A stretch of DNA of 39,144 nt from a virus (Duplodnaviria > Heunggongvirae > Uroviricota > Caudoviricetes). The stretch lies in IMG/VR virus record IMGVR_UViG_2778261089_000004. One strand, written 5' to 3'. Positions within the stretch are counted from its first letter, which is position 1. Every line of letters starts with the position of its first letter. The notes beneath the pieces are model-generated. The model saw only the letters and a list, made by a program, of their open reading frames with translations. It had not been told where the DNA came from and ran no database searches. The position numbers and the translations under genes are program-made. Of this stretch, positions 1,496-36,424 are shown piece by piece.

Positions 1496-3013
1496 TTAAT
1501 GCAACGTTTTATACATCGGCACATAACCTACATCTTCCACCAGGCTCTGCCCCTGCGGCGTTAAAAACCACTCCACCAATTTTTGTGTTTCTGACGTCAT
1601 ATTTTCCCGCGTTACCATAAAGGCATCGACGATATAGGGATATTTGCCGTTGCGAATGTTTTCGGCAGTCGGTGCAATACCGTTAATCGCTAGCAGTTTT
1701 ATATTTTTATCGGCGTTCATTTGTGTTGCGTAATAACGGAAGGTGTAACCTATTGCGTTGTTTGTATTACGGTATTCGGCAACGACTTTAATCATTCCCT
1801 CCATCATACTTGCCACTTCTGTTTCCTGCGGCGAGATCATGCGGACATTTTTCATGACCTGGGATTGCATCACCGTCTGGCTACCAGAGTCTTCCGGGCG
1901 TTGCCAGGTCTGGATCTCCTGATCGTTACCGCCAACCGTGCGCCAGTTGGTAATTGCACCACTGAAGATGTCACGCACTTGTTGTTCGGTCAGGGAATTA
2001 ACCGGGTTATCTACATTGACGATGAAAACAAACGCTTCACGGGCAAAAGGCGTGTAAATCAAAGTGACGCCCGATTCCTCCGCGCGTTTTTTCTGCCCAC
2101 CGGAAGGTTGAGCCACAAAGATAATATCGGCATTACCTTTAACAATCTTGTTATATGCTTCGGGAGTACGAGAGTTCGCCAGATATTCCCATTCGTGAAA
2201 ATCTTCCGGCAAAACGCTTAGTGCATAAAAGGCAGAGGCATAAATGGGGTACGCCGCCGTTGCGCCATCAAGTCGCGGCCAGTTTTGCGTGAACTGAATT
2301 TGCGGTTTACCACGCAGTGGTGTCAGTTGATTATTGAGTTTATCGGGTCGCCAGGCCCAGGTATCAATATTTTCACGCACACCGACGCCGGGATTAAGCT
2401 GTTTATATAAATAAGCCTGGTAACCGGCGACAAAACCAAGCATGAGAAGGATAAACAAGAGAGAATTACGGCAACGTAACCCGGACGTGCCCGTTAAAGG
2501 ATATCTGGTCGGCCAGCCGTACCCCAGCGAAAAACTGATATGCGCGCCAACAGGTATAATGACTAACCACCAGTACTCACCACCGACTAATGAGGCTAAC
2601 AAAACGCCCAGCCAGGGGAGCATAAGATCAGCCAACCAACCCGCTCCCATCTGGCGAAATTGATAATCTGCCAGATGCAGCGCGATTATCCAGACCCCCA
2701 GGGTTAATAATGCGGGTACTAAAAAAAGACATTGTCGCCAGACGGCTATTTCTCTTTTTTCTGGTGCACTATCGTCCGCCCACACTCGCCCCGAGAAAAA
2801 TAGCATTAATGCGCCCAGCGCCAGCATAAAAATGTTGAGCAGAAGGTAAATTGTTGGCGTGATAAAGATATTACAAACTTCAATAATACCGGCAAGTCCG
2901 ACACCCAGCATGGCAATAACCGCCGCCAAAAACTGCGCCAGAATGGGGATGCCGAAAAAAGTCATTACCAGCGAGGTCAAAATCCATTTTCTGTTTTGCA
3001 TTATTCTTTCCAT
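1496..3013 (-). CDS. integral membrane protein with C-terminal PstS-like (periplasmic phosphate-binding-protein-type) domain, 505 aa
   Basis: N-terminal about 230 aa with multiple hydrophobic helices; C-terminal half resembles type-2 periplasmic binding domains of the PstS family (e.g. FSGAITNWRTVGG). Start may be the Met at 3001. Domain call from memory. Confidence 0.6.
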   Translation of the reverse strand: MERIMQNRKWILTSLVMTFFGIPILAQFLAAVIAMLGVGLAGIIEVCNIFITPTIYLLLNIFMLALGALMLFFSGRVWADDSAPEKREIAVWRQCLFLVPALLTLGVWIIALHLADYQFRQMGAGWLADLMLPWLGVLLASLVGGEYWWLVIIPVGAHISFSLGYGWPTRYPLTGTSGLRCRNSLLFILLMLGFVAGYQAYLYKQLNPGVGVRENIDTWAWRPDKLNNQLTPLRGKPQIQFTQNWPRLDGATAAYPIYASAFYALSVLPEDFHEWEYLANSRTPEAYNKIVKGNADIIFVAQPSGGQKKRAEESGVTLIYTPFAREAFVFIVNVDNPVNSLTEQQVRDIFSGAITNWRTVGGNDQEIQTWQRPEDSGSQTVMQSQVMKNVRMISPQETEVASMMEGMIKVVAEYRNTNNAIGYTFRYYATQMNADKNIKLLAINGIAPTAENIRNGKYPYIVDAFMVTRENMTSETQKLVEWFLTPQGQSLVEDVGYVPMYKTLH

Positions 3014-6735: not shown

Positions 6736-7831
6736 CGGACACCCCGGTCATGTTAAGAGTGATCGCCGTACAGTTTGCCCATTCGTTTTCTGCCACCACC
6801 CTCAGTGCCGGTGTCACCAGTTCGACCTGGTACACCCCGGAAACGGACAACACGCTGATAATCTGGCTGGGAACAATATCGCGCCCCAGCGTGGCGGTAC
6901 GGGATGCCACCCAGTTCTGTATGGCGCTGTTAGCGTTGTCCTTTACCAACCTTGCATCCTGATCACGATAGATCGTAATCCTGGCTTCAATGGTGTAATC
7001 CACCTGAACAGGTGTTTTAGCCCGCACGGTATCAGTGAGTGGTCTGACTTTTTCGTCAGAACAGAAACTCTCTACCAGAGTGAGGATACTGCTGTCCGGC
7101 AGACCAGTGCTGAGCAGCGGATACAGCTCGACAGTGCCGGGAACGGGAGAAAGAACAGCAACGTCGACAATGCCGGGATGCGCCCCCATAGCATGAAAAC
7201 GGTATGCACCACGGCTTCCGGCATTGGTGAATGACTCCGGGGCCAGCCTGATACGCTCCCGGAGCCGGTCATCGTCTTCCTGCTCTGAACCGCCAGAGCT
7301 GGCCGTCAGATTGGTCACCAGCAGGTCAATGTTATCAATCTCATCGAGTAACTGACTGACCTGCGCCGGTTGCCAGCCGTTGCCAGCGGTACCCGGCTCG
7401 GTACAGGTGGCCGTGACATTGACCAGCAGCAATCCGGCCTTCAGCACCACGTCTGTATCGGTGGCAAAAATAATACTGTCGGAAGCGCTGACGCGGGTGC
7501 CTGCCGGGATCAGCACATCAATGGCCAGTGCCTCATCCACAGAGAACTGAAGTGTGGTGGTGGCAGGCTGCGCGGCAAGGCGGTATACACCGACCAGTTC
7601 ACCGAGGTAATCAATCATCGGCTCACGGGAAAAAGCGACCAGATTCTGCTTCGCCGCCTCCTGTACTGCCACCCTGACCAGCATTTCGCGATAGGCCCAC
7701 AGGTCAATCAGCAGACGTTCAGCCTGTGCCGGGTACAGCGTTTTTCCGGTATCCGCTTCATACTTCGCAATCATTTCTGCCGTGATTTTATCGGCATCGC
7801 GTTCAATAAAATCGGGTTCTGTCAGCGCCAT
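6728..7831 (-). CDS. baseplate J-like protein (Mu gp47 / P2 gpJ-like)
   Basis: 367 aa, conserved position and size. Confidence 0.8.
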   Translation of the reverse strand: MALTEPDFIERDADKITAEMIAKYEADTGKTLYPAQAERLLIDLWAYREMLVRVAVQEAAKQNLVAFSREPMIDYLGELVGVYRLAAQPATTTLQFSVDEALAIDVLIPAGTRVSASDSIIFATDTDVVLKAGLLLVNVTATCTEPGTAGNGWQPAQVSQLLDEIDNIDLLVTNLTASSGGSEQEDDDRLRERIRLAPESFTNAGSRGAYRFHAMGAHPGIVDVAVLSPVPGTVELYPLLSTGLPDSSILTLVESFCSDEKVRPLTDTVRAKTPVQVDYTIEARITIYRDQDARLVKDNANSAIQNWVASRTATLGRDIVPSQIISVLSVSGVYQVELVTPALRVVAENEWANCTAITLNMTGVSDG

Positions 7832-8169: not shown

Positions 8170-8225
8170 GGAGGCAGTATTGCCCCCGGGAAGTAAGCGC
8201 CGATATTAAAGGCGTTTAAGAAGGT

Positions 8226-13964: not shown

Positions 13965-14040
13965 GATCGTGCTCCTGTGTAAGTTCAGGGCAGTATGTCT
14001 GGCGGTGGACGTAACGGATATTAAAGGAGATTAAGAAGAA

Positions 14041-19880: not shown

Positions 19881-20094
19881 TTTGCTGTCCCGCGTTATGT
19901 TGTCGGAGACAGTTTGTGAGAAATGCAGGCCCGGCGATTTTAATCTGCTTTAGAAAACATCAGGGGAGAAGGACAGGGAAAGCAATGCGGTGAACCGGAG
20001 GCGGTTATAAAACAGAGGCTGTAAAGCCTTTATAAAGGTAATACAGCCCCTCATTCGCTGGCAATGATAAATCACCCGCCTGAAGAGAGAAACC

Positions 20095-27004: not shown

Positions 27005-27355
27005 TTAAAGCCCCATCGCAACAGCCAGACAGACCGCTGCAACAATCAGTGCACGGCGGATTAACGCAGCAGAAAACACCAGGTGAAGGCCGGTCTGTAC
27101 CGGGAAACGCCCATCAGCCATCAGTCTGTCGTCATGTTTCAGGTACTGACCGGGACGGGCTTTGGGGAAGAGCGAACGGTCAAGCCAGTAACCCAGCACT
27201 GCTGCCAGCGTGATGAGTGCCAGCTTGTAGATCACAACAGGCAACTGCTGTGGCGAGACCAGAGCGATGGTGCCCAGCAACAGCACTGAGGTCAGCAGCC
27301 AGCCGCTGAGGCGAGGTTTTTTAACAGGGGGAATGAATTTTTTCAGGTTTTTCAT
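27005..27355 (-). CDS. putative holin (three predicted TM segments)
   Basis: First gene of late operon; RBS AAGGAGA 6 nt before ATG at 27355; precedes endolysin. Confidence 0.55.
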   Translation of the reverse strand: MKNLKKFIPPVKKPRLSGWLLTSVLLLGTIALVSPQQLPVVIYKLALITLAAVLGYWLDRSLFPKARPGQYLKHDDRLMADGRFPVQTGLHLVFSAALIRRALIVAAVCLAVAMGL

Positions 27356-27485
27356 GTGTGTCTCCTTGTCTGGTGGAGACAGCATCACAAATACAGGGCG
27401 CGAAGGATTTTAAAGCGCGTTAAGAGAGCCGGGGATACGGGATGTGCAGGATAAACGATGAATTATTCACAGAGGAGAATACGAT
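27356..27485. promoter_or_regulatory. divergent intergenic region: presumed late-operon promoter (minus) and accessory-operon promoter (plus)
   Basis: 130-bp gap between two divergently oriented first genes, each with a strong RBS; no sigma70 consensus confidently identified. Confidence 0.4.
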
Positions 27486-28229
27486 ATGACGCAGACACTG
27501 AATCCGGTCATCACTGTCACTGTGTCCGGTCCTGTGGGCAGCGGTAAAAGTTACGTACTGGCGCGGATAGAAGAGATGGTGAAACAGGAACTCGGAAACA
27601 GCGTCATTGTCGATGCTGCTGACGTGGAGAATGAGCGCCGTATGAGTGGCGATGATCTGACGACCTGGCAGAAGCCACGGGGTGGCACAGTGATCAGGCT
27701 GGAGGAATACACGGGACAGGGCCTGTTGTCATACGGCGAGGAGCGTATCTGTCGGACGAATGAGCTGCTGGATGTTATATGCCCCACGGGCCGGCAACCC
27801 TGGATACTGCCCGATGCACTGCATGCCACCATTGCGGCACTGATGACAGTTTACGATCAGGAACTGCTCATGAAGGAGTTACGTAAACTCACCGGTCAGC
27901 CAACAGAATGTTTTTCGGCCCCGAAGTACGGGAAGCAGGAACACCTCCCGGTGAACACAATCCCCGTTAACCAGCCTCCCCGGTTCTTCGACGAATACAT
28001 TCTGACACCGGAAAATAAAGCTGAGCACGAAGAGATCAAAGCGGCGTTGTTCCGGGAAATCAGGAAGATTGCTGAAATGCAACTGGGGGGCGGGCTGGAC
28101 AGAGTGATAGCGAGAGGAGAATGGGAGTCGCTGTTTGAAAGAGTTTCCCCGGAATTACTGCCCCTCGCACTGGCTATCGGGATTATGCAGACAGCAGATA
28201 AACCTCACTTACGTTCATCAAACACGTAG
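27486..28229 (+). CDS. P-loop NTPase of unknown function (247 aa), possibly kinase-like
   Basis: Walker A GPVGSGKS at residues 14-21; RBS GAGGAG before ATG; transcribed divergently from the late operon. Confidence 0.7.
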   Translation: MTQTLNPVITVTVSGPVGSGKSYVLARIEEMVKQELGNSVIVDAADVENERRMSGDDLTTWQKPRGGTVIRLEEYTGQGLLSYGEERICRTNELLDVICPTGRQPWILPDALHATIAALMTVYDQELLMKELRKLTGQPTECFSAPKYGKQEHLPVNTIPVNQPPRFFDEYILTPENKAEHEEIKAALFREIRKIAEMQLGGGLDRVIARGEWESLFERVSPELLPLALAIGIMQTADKPHLRSSNT

Positions 28230-28282
28230 CGCAGAATATTTTGCCGGTGAGTACATAAAAATCATCATTTAAGGAGTGCATC

Positions 28283-28498
28283 ATGAATCCCCGATTAACG
28301 TTAACAGAACATCAGCGCCGTGCTGAAGCAGTGAACAATGTTCTGGAAGATATTATCCGGTTATACCGCGGAGAACTGAGTGTCTGTCGTGCCGCTTTTC
28401 ATTTTCAGGGAATACAAAAGCAGTTTGATACTTCTGTTTTTGCAGAAGGTATTACTTATGCCCTGGACCGGATAAGGTCAGAAAATCGCCCCGGATAA
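28283..28498 (+). CDS. small hypothetical protein (71 aa)
   Basis: RBS AAGGAG before ATG, 53 bp after the P-loop gene; no family recognised. Confidence 0.55.
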   Translation: MNPRLTLTEHQRRAEAVNNVLEDIIRLYRGELSVCRAAFHFQGIQKQFDTSVFAEGITYALDRIRSENRPG

Positions 28499-28552
28499 TC
28501 CCTAAACCACATTAACAGAAATCCCGCCATCCCTGCCGCATCATGAAAGAAC

Positions 28553-28584
28553 GACCAGCCCGGCACCCGAAAGCCGGGCTGGTC
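28553..28584. terminator. strong GC-rich stem-loop between the 71-aa gene and dam
   Basis: Perfect 11-12-bp stem accagcccggc / gccgggctggt with 8-nt loop; no clean U-tract on the plus strand. Confidence 0.4.
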
Positions 28585-28688
28585 ATCGCCCCACAGGAAT
28601 GCGCTGTGAGCCGACCAAGGTTCAGTCAGTCTCGCGAGACCTGACCAGACTGCCATATTTTTTAATAATTGTAAAAGGCTTACAGATT

Positions 28689-29453
28689 ATGAAAATGCAG
28701 ACATTACCCATCGTGCCGTGGATTGGTGGCAAACGTCGCCTTGCAAAACACATTCTGCCGCTGTTTCCGGCGCATGAATGTTATGTGGAGCCGTTTTGTG
28801 GGGCAGCAGCGCTCTATTTTCTTAAGACACCTGGTAAGCTCGAAGTCATTAACGATATCAATGGTGAACTGGTGAATCTGTACCGGGTGGTAAAGCATCA
28901 CCTGGAAGAATTTGTCCGCCAGTTCAAATGGGCGCTGGTCAGCCGTCAGATCTACAAATGGCTGCAAATCACCCCGGAAGAAACACTGACGGATATCCAG
29001 CGTGCAGCACGGTTCTACTACCTTCAGAAGCAGGCGTTTGGCGGCAAGGTGGCAGAGCACAGCTTCGGTACCTCCACCACATCCCCGCCACGCTTCAACT
29101 TGCTGCGTATTGAAGAAGAACTGTCAGCGGCACACCTGCGACTTTCCAGAACAGTCATAGAACACATGGACTGGCAACAGTGCATTGAGCGTTATGACCG
29201 CCCGCACACGCTGTTCTACTGCGACCCGCCGTATCTGGGTACGGAAGGCTATGGTGTGGATTTTCCTGAAGGGAACTACTCGCGGCTGGCAGAGCTGGCC
29301 CGGTGCATCAGAGGAAAAATGATAATTTCGGTGAACGACATCCCGCAGATGCGCGAGGTGTTCACTGGACTGAACATACAGACAGTGAATATCAACTACA
29401 GTCTGGCGGGCAAATCAACGCCGCGCCGTGAGCTGGTGATTTGCAATTTTTAA
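28689..29453 (+). CDS. dam: DNA adenine methyltransferase, Dam family (orphan, no cognate nuclease seen)
   Basis: PWIGGKRRL, VEPFCGAAALYF, DINGELVNLY and catalytic DPPY motifs match Dam-type N6-adenine methyltransferases; start at internal Met MKMQTLPI. Confidence 0.9.
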   Translation: MKMQTLPIVPWIGGKRRLAKHILPLFPAHECYVEPFCGAAALYFLKTPGKLEVINDINGELVNLYRVVKHHLEEFVRQFKWALVSRQIYKWLQITPEETLTDIQRAARFYYLQKQAFGGKVAEHSFGTSTTSPPRFNLLRIEEELSAAHLRLSRTVIEHMDWQQCIERYDRPHTLFYCDPPYLGTEGYGVDFPEGNYSRLAELARCIRGKMIISVNDIPQMREVFTGLNIQTVNINYSLAGKSTPRRELVICNF

Positions 29454-29466
29454 AAGAGGTAGTTAA

Positions 29467-29491
29467 AGGTGGTGCATCTGCAGCACCACCT
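29467..29491. terminator. stem-loop between convergent dam and lipoprotein genes, putative bidirectional terminator
   Basis: Perfect 9-bp stem aggtggtgc / gcaccacct with 7-nt loop between the two stop codons; flanking U-tracts are weak. Confidence 0.45.
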
Positions 29492-29497
29492 AAACAT

Positions 29498-30025
29498 TTA
29501 ATCCAGCCTTGGACAAGTCCAATAATCATTATCTGGATCAGGTGAATAAACCTTCAAACAACCCGCTCGCGGGGGCTTATCATCATCTGTCATCGGAACA
29601 TTTTCTTTATCCAGTTTCACAGTCAAGTCTCCACCGGGAACATCCGTTTTATCAAAAAAAACAGCCTGACATGCTGATTTAGGTATTTTCACTTCATGGG
29701 CATTATTGGATATGAACAAATAACAATTATTGCCAGAAGCTATGTAGTCACTTGGAATGTTATTTTCGTCTTTAATATGAAACTGCACAGTTGTCACCGG
29801 GCGTTCGCTATCCTTGGATACTTCAATTTTTTCAAAACTGCCCGCGTACTTATCTAGGCCGGGGAGTTGTTGGCGAATAAATTGTAATTCACGATTTACA
29901 ACAGGATTATCTGTTTCAACGCTAAAAACATCGTGCTCCTTAGTTGTGGTGGACATATCAGCTGGGGCAGTATTATCTCCACAGCCAGATAAAACAAATA
30001 TCAACGGTATAAATAATTTACGCAT
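29498..30025 (-). CDS. lipoprotein (putative superinfection-exclusion or lysogenic-conversion factor)
   Basis: Signal peptide MRKLFIPLIFVLSGC with lipobox LSGC; RBS AAGGA 7 nt upstream of the Met at 30025; AT-rich gene directly downstream of and co-oriented with the repressor gene. Confidence 0.7.
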   Translation of the reverse strand: MRKLFIPLIFVLSGCGDNTAPADMSTTTKEHDVFSVETDNPVVNRELQFIRQQLPGLDKYAGSFEKIEVSKDSERPVTTVQFHIKDENNIPSDYIASGNNCYLFISNNAHEVKIPKSACQAVFFDKTDVPGGDLTVKLDKENVPMTDDDKPPRAGCLKVYSPDPDNDYWTCPRLD

Positions 30026-30066
30026 CGTCATGTCCTTATACATTTAGTGTTCTTAATAGGAACAGA

Positions 30067-30477
30067 TTAACCCGTATTTTTTAATCTCTCGAACTCTGCG
30101 GACAGCTCCTTAAGCTGTTTTTCCATATTAATCATTCGCTGTTTTTCTTCAGCGCCTCGCAGTAACTCTTTCCGCACTTCTGGATCCAGTTGGTTGAGCA
30201 ACTCTAATAACTTCAGGTCAGATTGGCTGAAATGCTGCTCTTGATTAGTCAACTGTACTTTCTCTACTCCCACAGTTTCCCCTTTACCAGTAAGTAGCCA
30301 ATCTATCGATATGTTCAAATGAGCACTCAATGCAACAAGAGCTTCTGCATTAGGCTCTCGCTCTCCACGTAGATAATTTTGAAGTGAGCGATATGGAATT
30401 TTCGATAAATCAGATAATGCCTTGATTGTCAGACCTTTAGCAACCATCGCTTCGCGCAATCTCTCTTTTATACTCAT
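30067..30477 (-). CDS. prophage repressor, XRE/Cro-C1-type HTH (c-repressor analogue)
   Basis: HTH LTIKALSDLSKIPYRSLQNYLRGEREP near N-terminus, C-terminal coiled coil; divergent from early operon across an operator-like region. Start taken as MSIKERL at 30477. Confidence 0.75.
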   Translation of the reverse strand: MSIKERLREAMVAKGLTIKALSDLSKIPYRSLQNYLRGEREPNAEALVALSAHLNISIDWLLTGKGETVGVEKVQLTNQEQHFSQSDLKLLELLNQLDPEVRKELLRGAEEKQRMINMEKQLKELSAEFERLKNTG

Positions 30478-30565
30478 TTGAACACATCTCAATTTGACAC
30501 ACTCATTCGGGTGTGTACAATAGACCCAATAGAGTACATCATAACCCAACAGGAACACGGTGCAT
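30478..30565. promoter_or_regulatory. divergent repressor / early-operon promoter-operator region
   Basis: Plus strand TTGACA (30494-30499), 16-bp spacer, TACAAT (30516-30521) upstream of the ner-like gene; inverted repeat ACACAC-N8-GTGTGT (30497-30516) overlaps the spacer. Confidence 0.55.
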
Positions 30566-30790
30566 ATGAACAAACAACAAGTTCGAGCACGACTGGTTGA
30601 ACGAGGCAGTAGCCTGCGCCAGTTTGCGCTTAACGCGGGCTATGAGCCACGAACTGTTACCCAGGCTGTTAGCCGCTGGGCAGGCAAAAGTGAACTTCCA
30701 CGCGGTCGTTTGACTTATCGGATTTTGCGAGACCTTTCTGTTGCAATAGGTAAGGAAGTTACCCCCGGTATCCTCAAGGAGGCGTCATGA
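30566..30790 (+). CDS. ner: Ner-like DNA-binding protein (Ner/Nlp family)
   Basis: 74 aa, first gene of early operon divergent from repressor; pattern LRQFALNAGYEPRTVTQAVSR resembles Ner-family proteins. Family call from memory. Confidence 0.6.
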   Translation: MNKQQVRARLVERGSSLRQFALNAGYEPRTVTQAVSRWAGKSELPRGRLTYRILRDLSVAIGKEVTPGILKEAS

Positions 30791-36229: not shown

Positions 36230-36424
36230 ATGATATTTAAATGTATTCAGTGCGAGAGGGATATAACAGCCCTGCGTTTTCACAGCGCCATCGCCGTGAT
36301 GTCCGGTAAATACCACGTACCTGCAGTACGCGTCACCCTGGTCTGTCCGTACTGCAGTCAGCATTTTTCGGCAGATGTGCCCGTTATGGAATTCTCCCGC
36401 CCTGACAGGGAGGAAGCGCAATGA
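36230..36424 (+). CDS. small zinc-ribbon protein (CxxC...CxxC), Com-like architecture
   Basis: 64 aa with CIQC and CPYC pairs; RBS GAGGAG before ATG. Confidence 0.5.
   Translation: MIFKCIQCERDITALRFHSAIAVMSGKYHVPAVRVTLVCPYCSQHFSADVPVMEFSRPDREEAQ

Follow-up and report, generated by a model that had tools for sequence, protein, structure and literature searches.

The window analysed here, a stretch of 39,144 nucleotides, belongs to a BcepMu-like transposable prophage and shares the BcepMu-type gene order; over the stretch compared (27400-28600) it is 100% identical to Escherichia coli O68:H12 97.3. As the original prediction had proposed, positions 27356-29497 form a slot between divergent modules, with minus-strand lysis and late genes on one flank, including the holin gene (27005-27355, minus strand), and the immunity/early region on the other, where the repressor gene (30067-30477, minus strand) and an early promoter-like site (30494-30521, plus strand) are located. 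The slot contains three plus-strand genes, which encode a 247-aa accessory protein (27486..28229; PHROG 3787), preceded by a GAGGAG ribosome-binding site, a 71-aa orphan protein (28283..28498; PHROG 4490), and an orphan D12-class N6-adenine DNA methyltransferase of the B3 ORF48 type (Dam; 28689..29453). These open reading frames, the Walker A motif in the first product, and both inverted repeats of the region were all found at the predicted positions, and the genes are accessory, not core Mu-like functions, as had also been anticipated. Next to them, a lipoprotein-like gene (29498..30043, minus strand; lipobox LSGC) runs in the same orientation as the repressor gene and is likewise cargo of the slot; in other prophages its position is taken by varied cargo, e.g., YecR-like, DUF7424, and DUF2441 proteins, other lipoproteins included. 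The segment 27356-29497 is a variable accessory slot with the lysis cassette on one side and the immunity repressor on the other. The possibility that this slot is a known defence hotspot was rejected, since PADLOC gave no significant match for ten alternative cargo proteins of the slot.

The intergenic region that separates the divergent holin and 247-aa genes (27356..27485) contains a late-promoter-like motif, CTTAACGCGCTTTAAAATC (27406-27424), which lies on the minus strand and serves the lysis operon. Four copies of this motif are present in the window, against 0.79 expected by chance, all of them on the minus strand and 5' of late operons. No plus-strand copy was found ahead of the three accessory genes, no sigma-70-like site was detected on the plus strand of 27356..27485, and no plus-strand promoter could be assigned to the trio. 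At the opposite end, a 9-bp hairpin (29467-29475/29483-29491; 100% complementary, with a 7-nt loop) is located between the convergent dam and lipoprotein genes, and is probably a weak bidirectional transcript end. Neither this inverted repeat nor the one at 28553-28584 is followed by a T-run on the plus strand, and neither was called by the terminator scan.

The dam frame is open from 28599, the true start being 28689, which is likewise the RefSeq start; the stretch 5' of this position is non-coding, since relatives differ there by 1-nt and 12-nt indels. The predicted product matched PF02086 (E 5.7e-29; 102 bits vs. a cut-off of 22) and TIGR00571 (117.5 bits vs. a cut-off of 114.85), and harbors the SAM-binding motif I FCGAA (residues 36-40; nt 28794-28808) and the catalytic motif IV DPPY (residues 179-182; nt 29223-29234). 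It reached 67.7 bits with the E. coli Dam equivalog model, for which the cut-off is 441, and matched canonical Dam at E 5e-17 and DpnM at E 3e-14, while it is 63.4% identical to ORF48 of phage B3 over residues 3-254 (99% of its length). No nuclease domain was found among the neighboring genes, in agreement with the earlier view of an orphan enzyme.

Directly 5' of dam, a conserved structured leader of 158 nt (28537..28694, plus strand) was identified, scoring 138.7 bits with its covariance model. The leader is composed of a long-range helix P1 (28549-28552/28620-28623), with strands ~70 nt apart; P2 (28553-28564/28573-28584), a stem of 12 nt with 100% complementarity and an 8-nt loop; P3 (28592-28596/28604-28608); the P4 palindrome (28629-28640), usually with zero spacer; and a helix in which an anti-Shine-Dalgarno (anti-SD) segment (28647-28651) pairs with the Shine-Dalgarno (SD) region (28676-28680) ahead of the start codon at 28689. 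The hairpin at 28553-28584, formerly regarded as separating the first two genes from dam, is in fact helix P2 of this covarying RNA. Its candidacy as a Rho-independent terminator was rejected, as the stem is followed by AUCGCCCC, with no U-tract, and was passed over by the terminator scan. With regard to P4, a shared late-gene operator was considered and discarded on account of its single occurrence in the window; a palindrome with zero spacer would, moreover, be expected of a DNA site bound by a dimeric protein more than of an RNA hairpin.

In the leader alignment, 95.1% of cells were paired, compared with 23-42% in slid controls, and compensatory changes were present in 20 of the 23 pairs; 271 cells were doubly changed, and the folding-energy z-score was -4.9. 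The SD helix is conserved across leaders; with AGACU as its anti-SD, the window has one mismatch in this helix. Model R1 placed the leader directly ahead of dam or com in at least 62 loci, and further matches were obtained in B3 (44.1 bits, E 2e-10, ending at the com start) and in a Burkholderia phage. Moreover, a protein-independent DNA pattern search recovered 48 further leaders, 41 abutting a dam start and 4 abutting a com-like ORF. Altogether, the leader is found directly 5' of dam or com in ~110 viral loci. At gathering thresholds, no Rfam family matched anywhere in the window, and the region 27300-30700 gave chance-level matches only (E values of at least 1.8); the leader was not found in phage Mu. 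Judged by sequence comparison, the leader is a well-supported and widely distributed structured RNA motif, uncatalogued in RNA family databases, which appears to hide the dam ribosome-binding site.

It could be argued that the conserved region 5' of dam acts as DNA, i.e., as a promoter and an operator for a dimeric regulator, and not as an RNA switch. Indeed, of the 27 distinct versions of P4, 15 are perfect palindromes without a spacer, and the sequence differs from lineage to lineage as would that of a co-evolving operator; besides, a weak promoter-like site at 28641-28669 would leave P1-P4 upstream of the transcript. However, P1 covaries in spite of the ~70 nt between its strands, and G-U pairs in the leader helices are tolerated solely in the plus-strand sense (as in the SD helix, with 19 G-U and 10 U-G cells), whereas the -10-like hexamer varies across loci and the P4 palindrome is repeated nowhere else in the window. 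In addition, whichever ORF follows, dam or com, its SD is always included in the 3' helix. On this balance, a purely DNA-level role seems to us fairly unlikely, and we retain the interpretation of the region as a leader RNA.

Structured RNA upstream of a DNA-modification gene has a precedent in the com-mom operon of phage Mu, where the start of mom is masked by a translation-inhibition structure until Com opens it. As in Mu, the window carries a modification gene of a transposable phage, with a ribosome-binding site predicted to be sequestered in RNA structure, and relatives of the window cassette possess Com. In contrast, Mom is an unrelated enzyme, Mu lacks this leader, and the structured element lies between com and the modification gene in Mu, whereas in the window and its relatives it lies 5' of com or dam. 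The resemblance to the com-dam pair of B3 (ORF47-ORF48), which replaces com-mom, extends to the Dam protein itself, the structured leader, and the transposable-phage context. Unlike the window, B3 has a Com zinc-finger gene between leader and dam, while the leader of the window abuts dam directly; furthermore, the cassette is placed inside the late tail operon in B3, and in the central accessory slot, facing away from the late genes, in the window. Com-like ORFs are present 5' of dam in several IMG/VR loci, and many dam copies lie at the very end of Mu-like contigs, a location that matches that of mom in Mu. Regarding the window, no small CxxC...CxxC ORF was found in a plausible frame; Com, by which mom-type control is known to be activated, is therefore absent from it.

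Other methylases are known from comparable positions. Hia5, Hin1523, and Nma1821, from FluMu-type prophages, are orphan DPPY adenine methylases encoded at the mom position behind com, which are silent in lysogens and confer broad protection from restriction (PMC3299994). The window Dam is, like them, an orphan DPPY adenine methylase of a Mu-like prophage, but probably of a different subfamily: B3 ORF48 is reported to fall outside the 1000 proteins most similar to Hia5 (PMC3299994), which makes it unlikely, indirectly, that the window Dam is a member of the Hia5 subfamily. On the other hand, the same prophage family and slot are found in Phi2 of the ST131 strain EC958, where the Dam (WP_000783854.1) is 98.8% identical to that of the window. 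Unlike the window, the EC958 prophage has an extra minus-strand gene between the 247-aa and 71-aa genes, and no lipoprotein gene. Within the 20 kb of this prophage that were examined, no other D12-class methylase is annotated; WP_000783854.1 is probably M.EcoMIV, the old locus tag EC958_1101 having been mapped to it by position. In lysogens, M.EcoMIV is transcribed well below the host dam and no methylation motif could be attributed to it (PMC4659465); as of that study, none of the homologues sharing over 65% identity with M.EcoMIV had a determined recognition site (PMC4659465, 2015). The methylation profiling of lysogen versus cured strain proposed in the original prediction has in effect been performed on the ST131 copy, as identified by position, with a negative outcome because the gene is poorly transcribed in lysogens (PMC4659465).

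The anti-restriction function formerly suggested for Dam stands insofar as this family takes the place of mom in Mu-like phages, as illustrated by the relative in B3 encoded behind com (PMC3299994), but not as a component of one trio module. Conversely, Dam might serve the biology of the phage itself, acting on phage promoters, on transposition, or on the epigenetics of host genes in the lysogen, rather than evading restriction. Both the Mu mom promoter and IS10 are Dam-regulated, and GATC is strongly depleted in the window (83 observed vs. 175 expected); moreover, E. coli hosts already methylate GATC with their own Dam, and therefore an additional GATC enzyme would add little. Nevertheless, transcription of the EC958 copy is low and lysogens display no motif from it, members of the family follow com at the mom position in B3 and other phages, and the mom-position methylases of Mu-like prophages, although of a different Dam subfamily, protect from many restriction enzymes (PMC3299994). 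For these reasons, we regard a role confined to phage biology as unlikely, and continue with restriction evasion as the preferred function of Dam.

Whether the three genes work together was addressed through their distribution. In the synteny table, all three are present in 15 loci, while the first gene is found shortened and alone in 7 loci; the sequence coding for its N-terminal domain accompanies dam, with the 71-aa gene absent, in 4 loci, of which 3 are distinct (L006/L027, L028, and L030), as L006 and L027 are one Citrobacter prophage. L029 has the N-terminal domain gene only, and KP12 has dam only. Among 5426 complete E. coli genomes, the 247-aa gene was present in 584, the 71-aa gene in 499, and dam in 526; in most E. 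coli copies, the 247-aa and 71-aa genes are separated by an inserted minus-strand gene. The 71-aa protein, with homologues in E. coli only, shows an identity of at least 99% in 447 of these 499 genomes; its matches to HTH_psq and DUF7938 were weak and sub-threshold, and PADLOC gave none. Dam keeps its own conserved leader irrespective of the upstream genes. The 247-aa, 71-aa, and dam genes are independently exchangeable modules and not a fixed operon. The 71-aa gene and the first gene travel together in most E. coli copies, and a functional link between these two is possible.

A single functional system, whether for defence, for abortive infection, or of toxin-antitoxin-like nature, would combine a P-loop effector or sensor with the 71-aa protein as its partner and Dam for self-protection. 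Such a system would be in line with the adjacency of three genes on the same strand, with their co-occurrence in most E. coli copies, with their residence in a variable slot of a prophage, a frequent site of defence genes, and with the mosaic C-terminus of the first product, as expected from arms-race proteins. Yet every partial combination of the genes exists in nature, a gene on the opposite strand splits the first two in most copies, and dam, besides its own leader, has unrelated neighbors in B3, Burkholderia, and Klebsiella phages; nor did PADLOC detect anything significant for the 247-aa protein, the 71-aa protein, or the alternative slot cargo. Accordingly, the single operon and the defence or abortive-infection module of the original prediction are not sustained, and we consider a unified system quite improbable compared with separate modules.

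The 247-aa protein is built of a phage-only mini P-loop N-terminal domain of ~75 aa (residues 1 to ~76; 27486..27713, plus strand), which is conserved, and a mosaic C-terminus of shuffled short helical blocks, with variants of 182, 158, and 141 aa in which internal or C-terminal blocks are missing. Close homologues are confined to E. coli, and an exhaustive HMMER search returned 54 representatives that, beyond these homologues and their fragments, have essentially residues 1-75 alone in common. Stand-alone versions of the N-terminal domain (70-90 aa) are encoded among small accessory genes of unrelated phages, and at least one Citrobacter locus was recovered by searching genome contigs with the domain alignment, whereas no homologue of the domain was found in BcepMu. 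The neighbors of the stand-alone members showed nothing function-specific. The Walker A motif GPVGSGKS corresponds to residues 15-22 (nt 27528-27551) and is retained in relatives as low as 32% identity; across 22 diverse members, G20 and K21 are invariant, and G15, G18, S22, I28, E50, and W61 are conserved in at least 90%. As for a Walker B acidic residue, relatives have E, T, V, I, or K in place of D43 (VIVD), which is not among the conserved columns, and no complete alpha/beta NTPase core was recognizable by profile or fold.

The AlphaFold model of the N-terminal domain (pLDDT 89.4) had no fold match in the PDB and matched one viral predicted structure (TM 0.71); two structure models of the domain conflict at residues 41-54, and the full-length model (pLDDT 46.5) was too poor for use. 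Over the element formed by strand, Walker A, and helix, profile matches (E 2e-4 to 3e-5) were obtained to the phosphate-loop protein 6c2u, the designed ATPase 9jix, and the N-terminal strand-loop-helix of ABC ATPases. The domain thereby resembles minimal P-loop constructs, its natural size of ~75 aa being close to theirs, but unlike 6c2u, 9jix, and ABC ATPases the match is at the motif level only, with no match of fold, and the sequences contain neither the ABC signature LSGGQ nor a Walker B nor an H-loop. The name ABC transporter ATPase, given by RefSeq to truncated alleles, was rejected, as PF00005 covers only the first ~50 residues, below threshold. When 26 distant relatives were scanned against Pfam and PHROG, sub-threshold P-loop matches and PHROGs of unknown function were all that appeared, a profile search of a 5.8-billion-protein set returned automatic P-loop names only, and the best PADLOC E-value for the 247-aa protein was 0.011, over the P-loop portion only.

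From the earlier description of a kinase-like P-loop protein, the Walker A motif is real and conserved, but the kinase or NTPase assignment does not hold, given the lack of both a conserved Walker B and a complete NTPase core; the 247-aa protein is not a kinase. That it could be an enzymatic P-loop kinase or NTPase partnering Dam in hypermodification of DNA bases is highly improbable, despite the conserved Walker A and weak profile matches that include cytidylate, uridine, and guanylate kinases. Instead, the mini P-loop domain may bind nucleotides, and the protein, being neither kinase nor motor, would serve in conflict between phage and host or between phages, as an adaptor that binds nucleotides or phosphate.

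Taken as a whole, the explanation that we favor, and hold to be reasonably probable, is a variable slot with three modules, in which a mini P-loop adaptor is accompanied by an RNA-gated, lytic-phase Dam of mom type. The dam cassette would consist of the 158-nt leader RNA and a B3-type Dam, as the substitute for mom in Mu-like phages. Expression would be off in the lysogen and switched to synthesis during lytic growth, and in this way progeny DNA would be adenine-methylated before packaging and might escape restriction in the next host. The leader would gate translation by pairing a conserved AGCCU-type segment with AGGCU of the SD region, for which the upstream three-way junction P1-P2-P3 could supply a competing partner. 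Of this picture, the anatomy, the modularity, the Dam family assignment, the covariation of the leader, and its linkage to dam and com were established by the analysis, whereas expression timing, restriction evasion, the switch, and nucleotide binding by the mini P-loop domain are inferred. More tentatively, and with clearly less confidence, it is possible that two further proposals hold jointly: that the leader represents a new cis-regulatory RNA class of Mu-like phages, in which a three-way-junction sensor with conserved junction nucleotides and an SD-sequestering helix would respond to a protein or small molecule and limit production of a potentially harmful DNA methylase, or of Com as its activator, to the lytic cycle; and that the N-terminal domain is a natural stand-alone minimal P-loop protein, which would lack the usual NTPase core and yet bind nucleic acid or nucleotides.

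In brief, the cassette is harbored by about one in ten complete E. coli genomes, the pandemic ST131 clone included. Methylome studies of lysogens are blind to this methylase, which a lytic-phase, mom-type function behind an RNA gate would explain, and the enzyme could be approached through leaderless expression or sequencing of virion DNA. Furthermore, the leader offers a tractable system for understanding how phages may time a dangerous DNA-modifying enzyme without the classical activator Com. Finally, the minimal phosphate-binding proteins used in protein-origins work may have a natural counterpart in the mini P-loop domain, whose mosaic partners suggest a role in phage-host conflict.

The gene order around the plus-strand trio was that of BcepMu-type transposable phages. 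The late genes (terminase, membrane protein, Rz-like protein, SLT transglycosylase, and holin) lie on the minus strand and end at 27355, the repressor gene occupies 30067-30477 on the same strand, and the plus-strand early operon, encoding a Ner-like protein, an HTH protein, a DUF3102 protein, a DDE transposase, an ExeA-like TnpB, and Gam, starts near 30560, with a near-consensus promoter (TTGACA-16-TACAAT, 30494-30521, plus strand) upstream of the Ner-like gene. A lipoprotein-like gene with the lipobox LSGC (29498-30043, minus strand) points the same way as the repressor gene, and lysogens probably express it. The nearest deposited phage was Escherichia phage PhiKM (genus Bcepmuvirus), with 96% identity, and the stretch used as query (27400-28600) matched the E. 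coli O68:H12 strain 97.3 chromosome at 100% identity. Among related loci, GenBank OM835952 (L002, 'Klebsiella phage KP12 clone KP12_2') is filed under Vequintavirinae, yet has the gene content of a BcepMu-like transposable phage, and is probably a co-assembled prophage sequence.

The three open reading frames of the trio, for the 247-aa protein (27486-28229, served by a GAGGAG ribosome-binding site), the 71-aa protein (28283-28498), and the Dam homologue (28689-29453), were all present. The original prediction treated them as one operon and one system, which was not borne out when the window proteins were run by tblastn against 37 related loci (tallies are per fetched locus, a few prophages being counted twice). 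The full 247-aa gene, the 71-aa gene, and dam occurred together in 15 loci, and the first gene occurred alone, in a truncated 157-aa form followed by unrelated minus-strand genes, in 7. A gene for the N-domain (residues 1 to ~75 of the 247-aa protein) was found with dam and without the 71-aa gene in L006 and L027 (one Citrobacter braakii prophage), L028, and L030, and dam alone in the Klebsiella record KP12. Among 5426 complete E. coli genomes, 584 carried the 247-aa gene, 499 the 71-aa gene, and 526 dam, and in most E. coli copies a minus-strand 134-aa gene is interposed between the first two genes. In BcepMu, the equivalent slot is filled by three unrelated, oppositely oriented genes; elsewhere, YecR-like or DUF7424 lipoproteins and a DUF2441 protein are among the alternative cargo, none of it matching a PADLOC model. 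Given these partial combinations, the opposite-strand insert, and the unrelated cargo elsewhere, the slot is a variable accessory region and the trio consists of three separate modules. The 247-aa and 71-aa genes may be functionally linked, because both usually travel together in E. coli, but such a link is not obligatory.

In locus L029, where the N-domain gene is alone, the dam leader (6885-7034, 53 bits) is kept directly 3' of that gene, but dam has given way to a DUF7424 lipoprotein gene on the minus strand; the leader remnant thus marks an exchange of cargo in the slot.

The motif CTTAA-N5-TTTAAWATC had five matches in the window against 0.79 expected by chance, four of them on the minus strand upstream of four late operons (8202-8220, 14017-14035, 19936-19954, and 27406-27424, the last preceding the holin gene), and a fifth, with two mismatches, at 36232-36250. 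It may serve the Mor/C-type late activator of this phage group as a binding site or promoter element. The window scan found no copy facing the trio, and a consensus scan turned up no convincing candidate for a plus-strand promoter of the 247-aa gene.

The Walker A motif of the 247-aa protein, GPVGSGKS, was confirmed at residues 15-22 (nt 27528-27551). The kinase reading attached to it found no support, since matches to Pfam, NCBIfam, and PDB profiles were all sub-threshold and confined to the strand-loop-helix element, the top PDB ones being ABC transporter domains, cytidylate kinase, and two minimal or designed P-loop proteins, and since the candidate Walker B residue, D43, was not conserved among 22 N-domain members. 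In these members, down to 32% identity, G20 and K21 were invariant, and G15, G18, S22, I28, E50, and W61 were conserved in at least 90%. Among 1.84 billion representatives searched exhaustively with HMMER, 54 proteins matched. Close homologues occurred in E. coli only, with variants of 182 aa (without residues 53-124) and of 141 and 158 aa (with different C-termini); beyond these and fragments, relatives have residues 1-75 alone in common, followed by short helical blocks that are unrelated or reshuffled, some recurring in different orders. Stand-alone N-domain proteins of 70-90 aa occur in unrelated phages and prophages, surrounded by small accessory genes. The conclusion drawn is that the 247-aa protein joins a mini P-loop domain specific to phages to a mosaic of C-terminal modules; this domain family was undescribed in the libraries searched. 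RefSeq names on fragments ('ABC transporter ATPase', 'KAP family NTPase') were rejected as motif artefacts, and the full-length structure model was unreliable, conflicting with the N-domain model at residues 41-54. Motif conservation suggests that the N-domain may bind phosphate or nucleotide, and mosaicism and location would be consistent with a conflict-related role.

The 71-aa protein belongs to PHROG 4490, a function-unknown group; its homologues were E. coli-type sequences only, and defence models, Pfam, and NCBIfam gave no assignment. Its gene was at least 99% identical in 447 of the 499 E. coli genomes, against mostly 95-99% for the 247-aa gene and dam, denoting either unusually high conservation or a recent sweep.

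The proposal that this accessory DNA carries an orphan Dam of the phage anti-restriction type was upheld. The protein matched PF02086 and TIGR00571 above cut-offs, with motif I and DPPY present, and lay far under the E. coli Dam equivalog cut-off. It shared 63.4% identity (tblastn) with Pseudomonas phage B3 ORF48, annotated downstream of a Com translational regulator; several IMG/VR loci likewise have a Com-like zinc-finger ORF ahead of dam, and many dam copies lie at the extreme end of Mu-like contigs, the position of mom in Mu. Adenine methylases have replaced mom in Mu-like prophages, and the FluMu-type enzymes, which stay silent in lysogens, shield DNA against many restriction enzymes; B3 ORF48 is uncharacterised and of another subfamily (Drozdz et al., PMC3299994). 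The window Dam itself lies nearer to canonical Dam and DpnM (E values 3e-14 and 5e-17). In ST131 strain EC958, a prophage of the window's family (located at 1.02-1.04 Mb) encodes a 98.8% identical Dam (WP_000783854.1), probably M.EcoMIV of prophage Phi2 by position and domain, whose gene is transcribed significantly less than host dam and to which no methylation motif could be assigned (Forde et al., PMC4659465). A lytic-phase, mom-like anti-restriction role agrees with these data, a lysogen-expressed one does not, and the window Dam is a further member of an already known kind.

GATC occurred 83 times in the whole window against 175 expected (Markov estimate; ratio 0.47), being the most depleted 4-base palindrome, slightly beyond CTAG (0.53), and is likewise under-represented in ST131 prophages (PMC4659465).

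Both predicted inverted repeats were exact (12 bp at 28553-28584 and 9 bp at 29467-29491); neither is followed by a plus-strand T-run or was called by a terminator scan. The first, taken originally for a gene separator, is part of a conserved leader RNA. About 150 nt 5' of dam are conserved across loci with differing upstream genes, with compensatory changes in this hairpin. In an RNAalifold consensus built from 17 diverse sequences, an outer helix P1 (28549-28552/28620-28623) encloses the hairpin, P2, and a second one, P3 (CACAG/CUGUG, 28592-28596/28604-28608), and a 3' helix pairs AGCCU with AGGCU of the AAAGGCUU Shine-Dalgarno (SD) region, 9-13 nt upstream of the start codon. The window has AGACU at the anti-SD (28647-28651), giving one mismatch with the SD (28676-28680). 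An upstream dam start at ATG 28599 (284 aa; PhiKM record PQ738613, CDS 29908-30762) was rejected, as relatives differ by 1-nt and 12-nt indels; the RefSeq start is 28689, and the 28599-28688 extension lies within the non-coding leader, its reading frame not conserved.

Comparative data demonstrate the leader structure and the pairing of the SD region. In the model-fitted alignment, 95.1% of cells were paired (a fraction inflated by fitting to the structure) against 23-42% with partners slid 1-3 columns; 20 of 23 pairs had two-sided changes (271 cells), and 0/500 shuffles reached the observed values. The long-range P1 covariation was visible already in a MAFFT alignment, G-U pairs had the plus-strand sense, and the window leader folded with z = -4.9 relative to shuffles. 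An alternative pairing of the same AGCCU segment with an AGGCU overlapping the P1 3' strand reached 85.8% pairing, with compensation at one position in 19 sequences. The segment would then alternate between the SD region and P1 as a three-partner switch, which is plausible, with weaker support than the SD pairing. Between P1 and the anti-SD lies P4 (28629-28640), at an equivalent position in ~60 related loci, with 27 distinct sequences, 15 of them perfect palindromes with zero spacer, such as GUCUCGCGAGAC (window), GUCAUCGAUGAC, and ACUGAUGGCCAUCAGU. It varies by lineage (GTCTCGCGAGAC, GTCATCGATGAC, and ACTGATGGCCATCAGT, among others). Because a simple hairpin needs no self-complementary loop, P4 may instead be bound as DNA by a dimeric protein or engage in RNA-RNA pairing.

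The covariance model of the leader (R1) matched the window once (28537-28694, 138.7 bits) and, across 76 sources, placed the leader directly 5' of dam, or of com where present, in at least 62 loci, without exception on the dam strand. Burkholderia phage vB_HM795 and B3 both carry the leader, and the B3 copy ends where com begins; none was found in phage Mu, and the window has no Com gene. No Rfam 15 family matched, and this dam/com leader RNA, even more notably than the mini P-loop domain, was undescribed in the libraries searched. In a Dam-independent check, viral contigs were searched with a DNA pattern from P3 and its 5' flank, and the full leader was present at E <=0.001 in 50 loci among the 80 matches listed; of 48 examined, 41 were directly followed by a Dam homologue and four by a Com-like ORF. 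One of these four, locus L200 (leader 1772-1921, minus strand; genes read from reoriented downstream sequence), continues with an unrelated DPPY methylase (containing ATDPPYYKV) and no Dam homologue. The leader therefore accompanies com and DNA-modification modules more generally.
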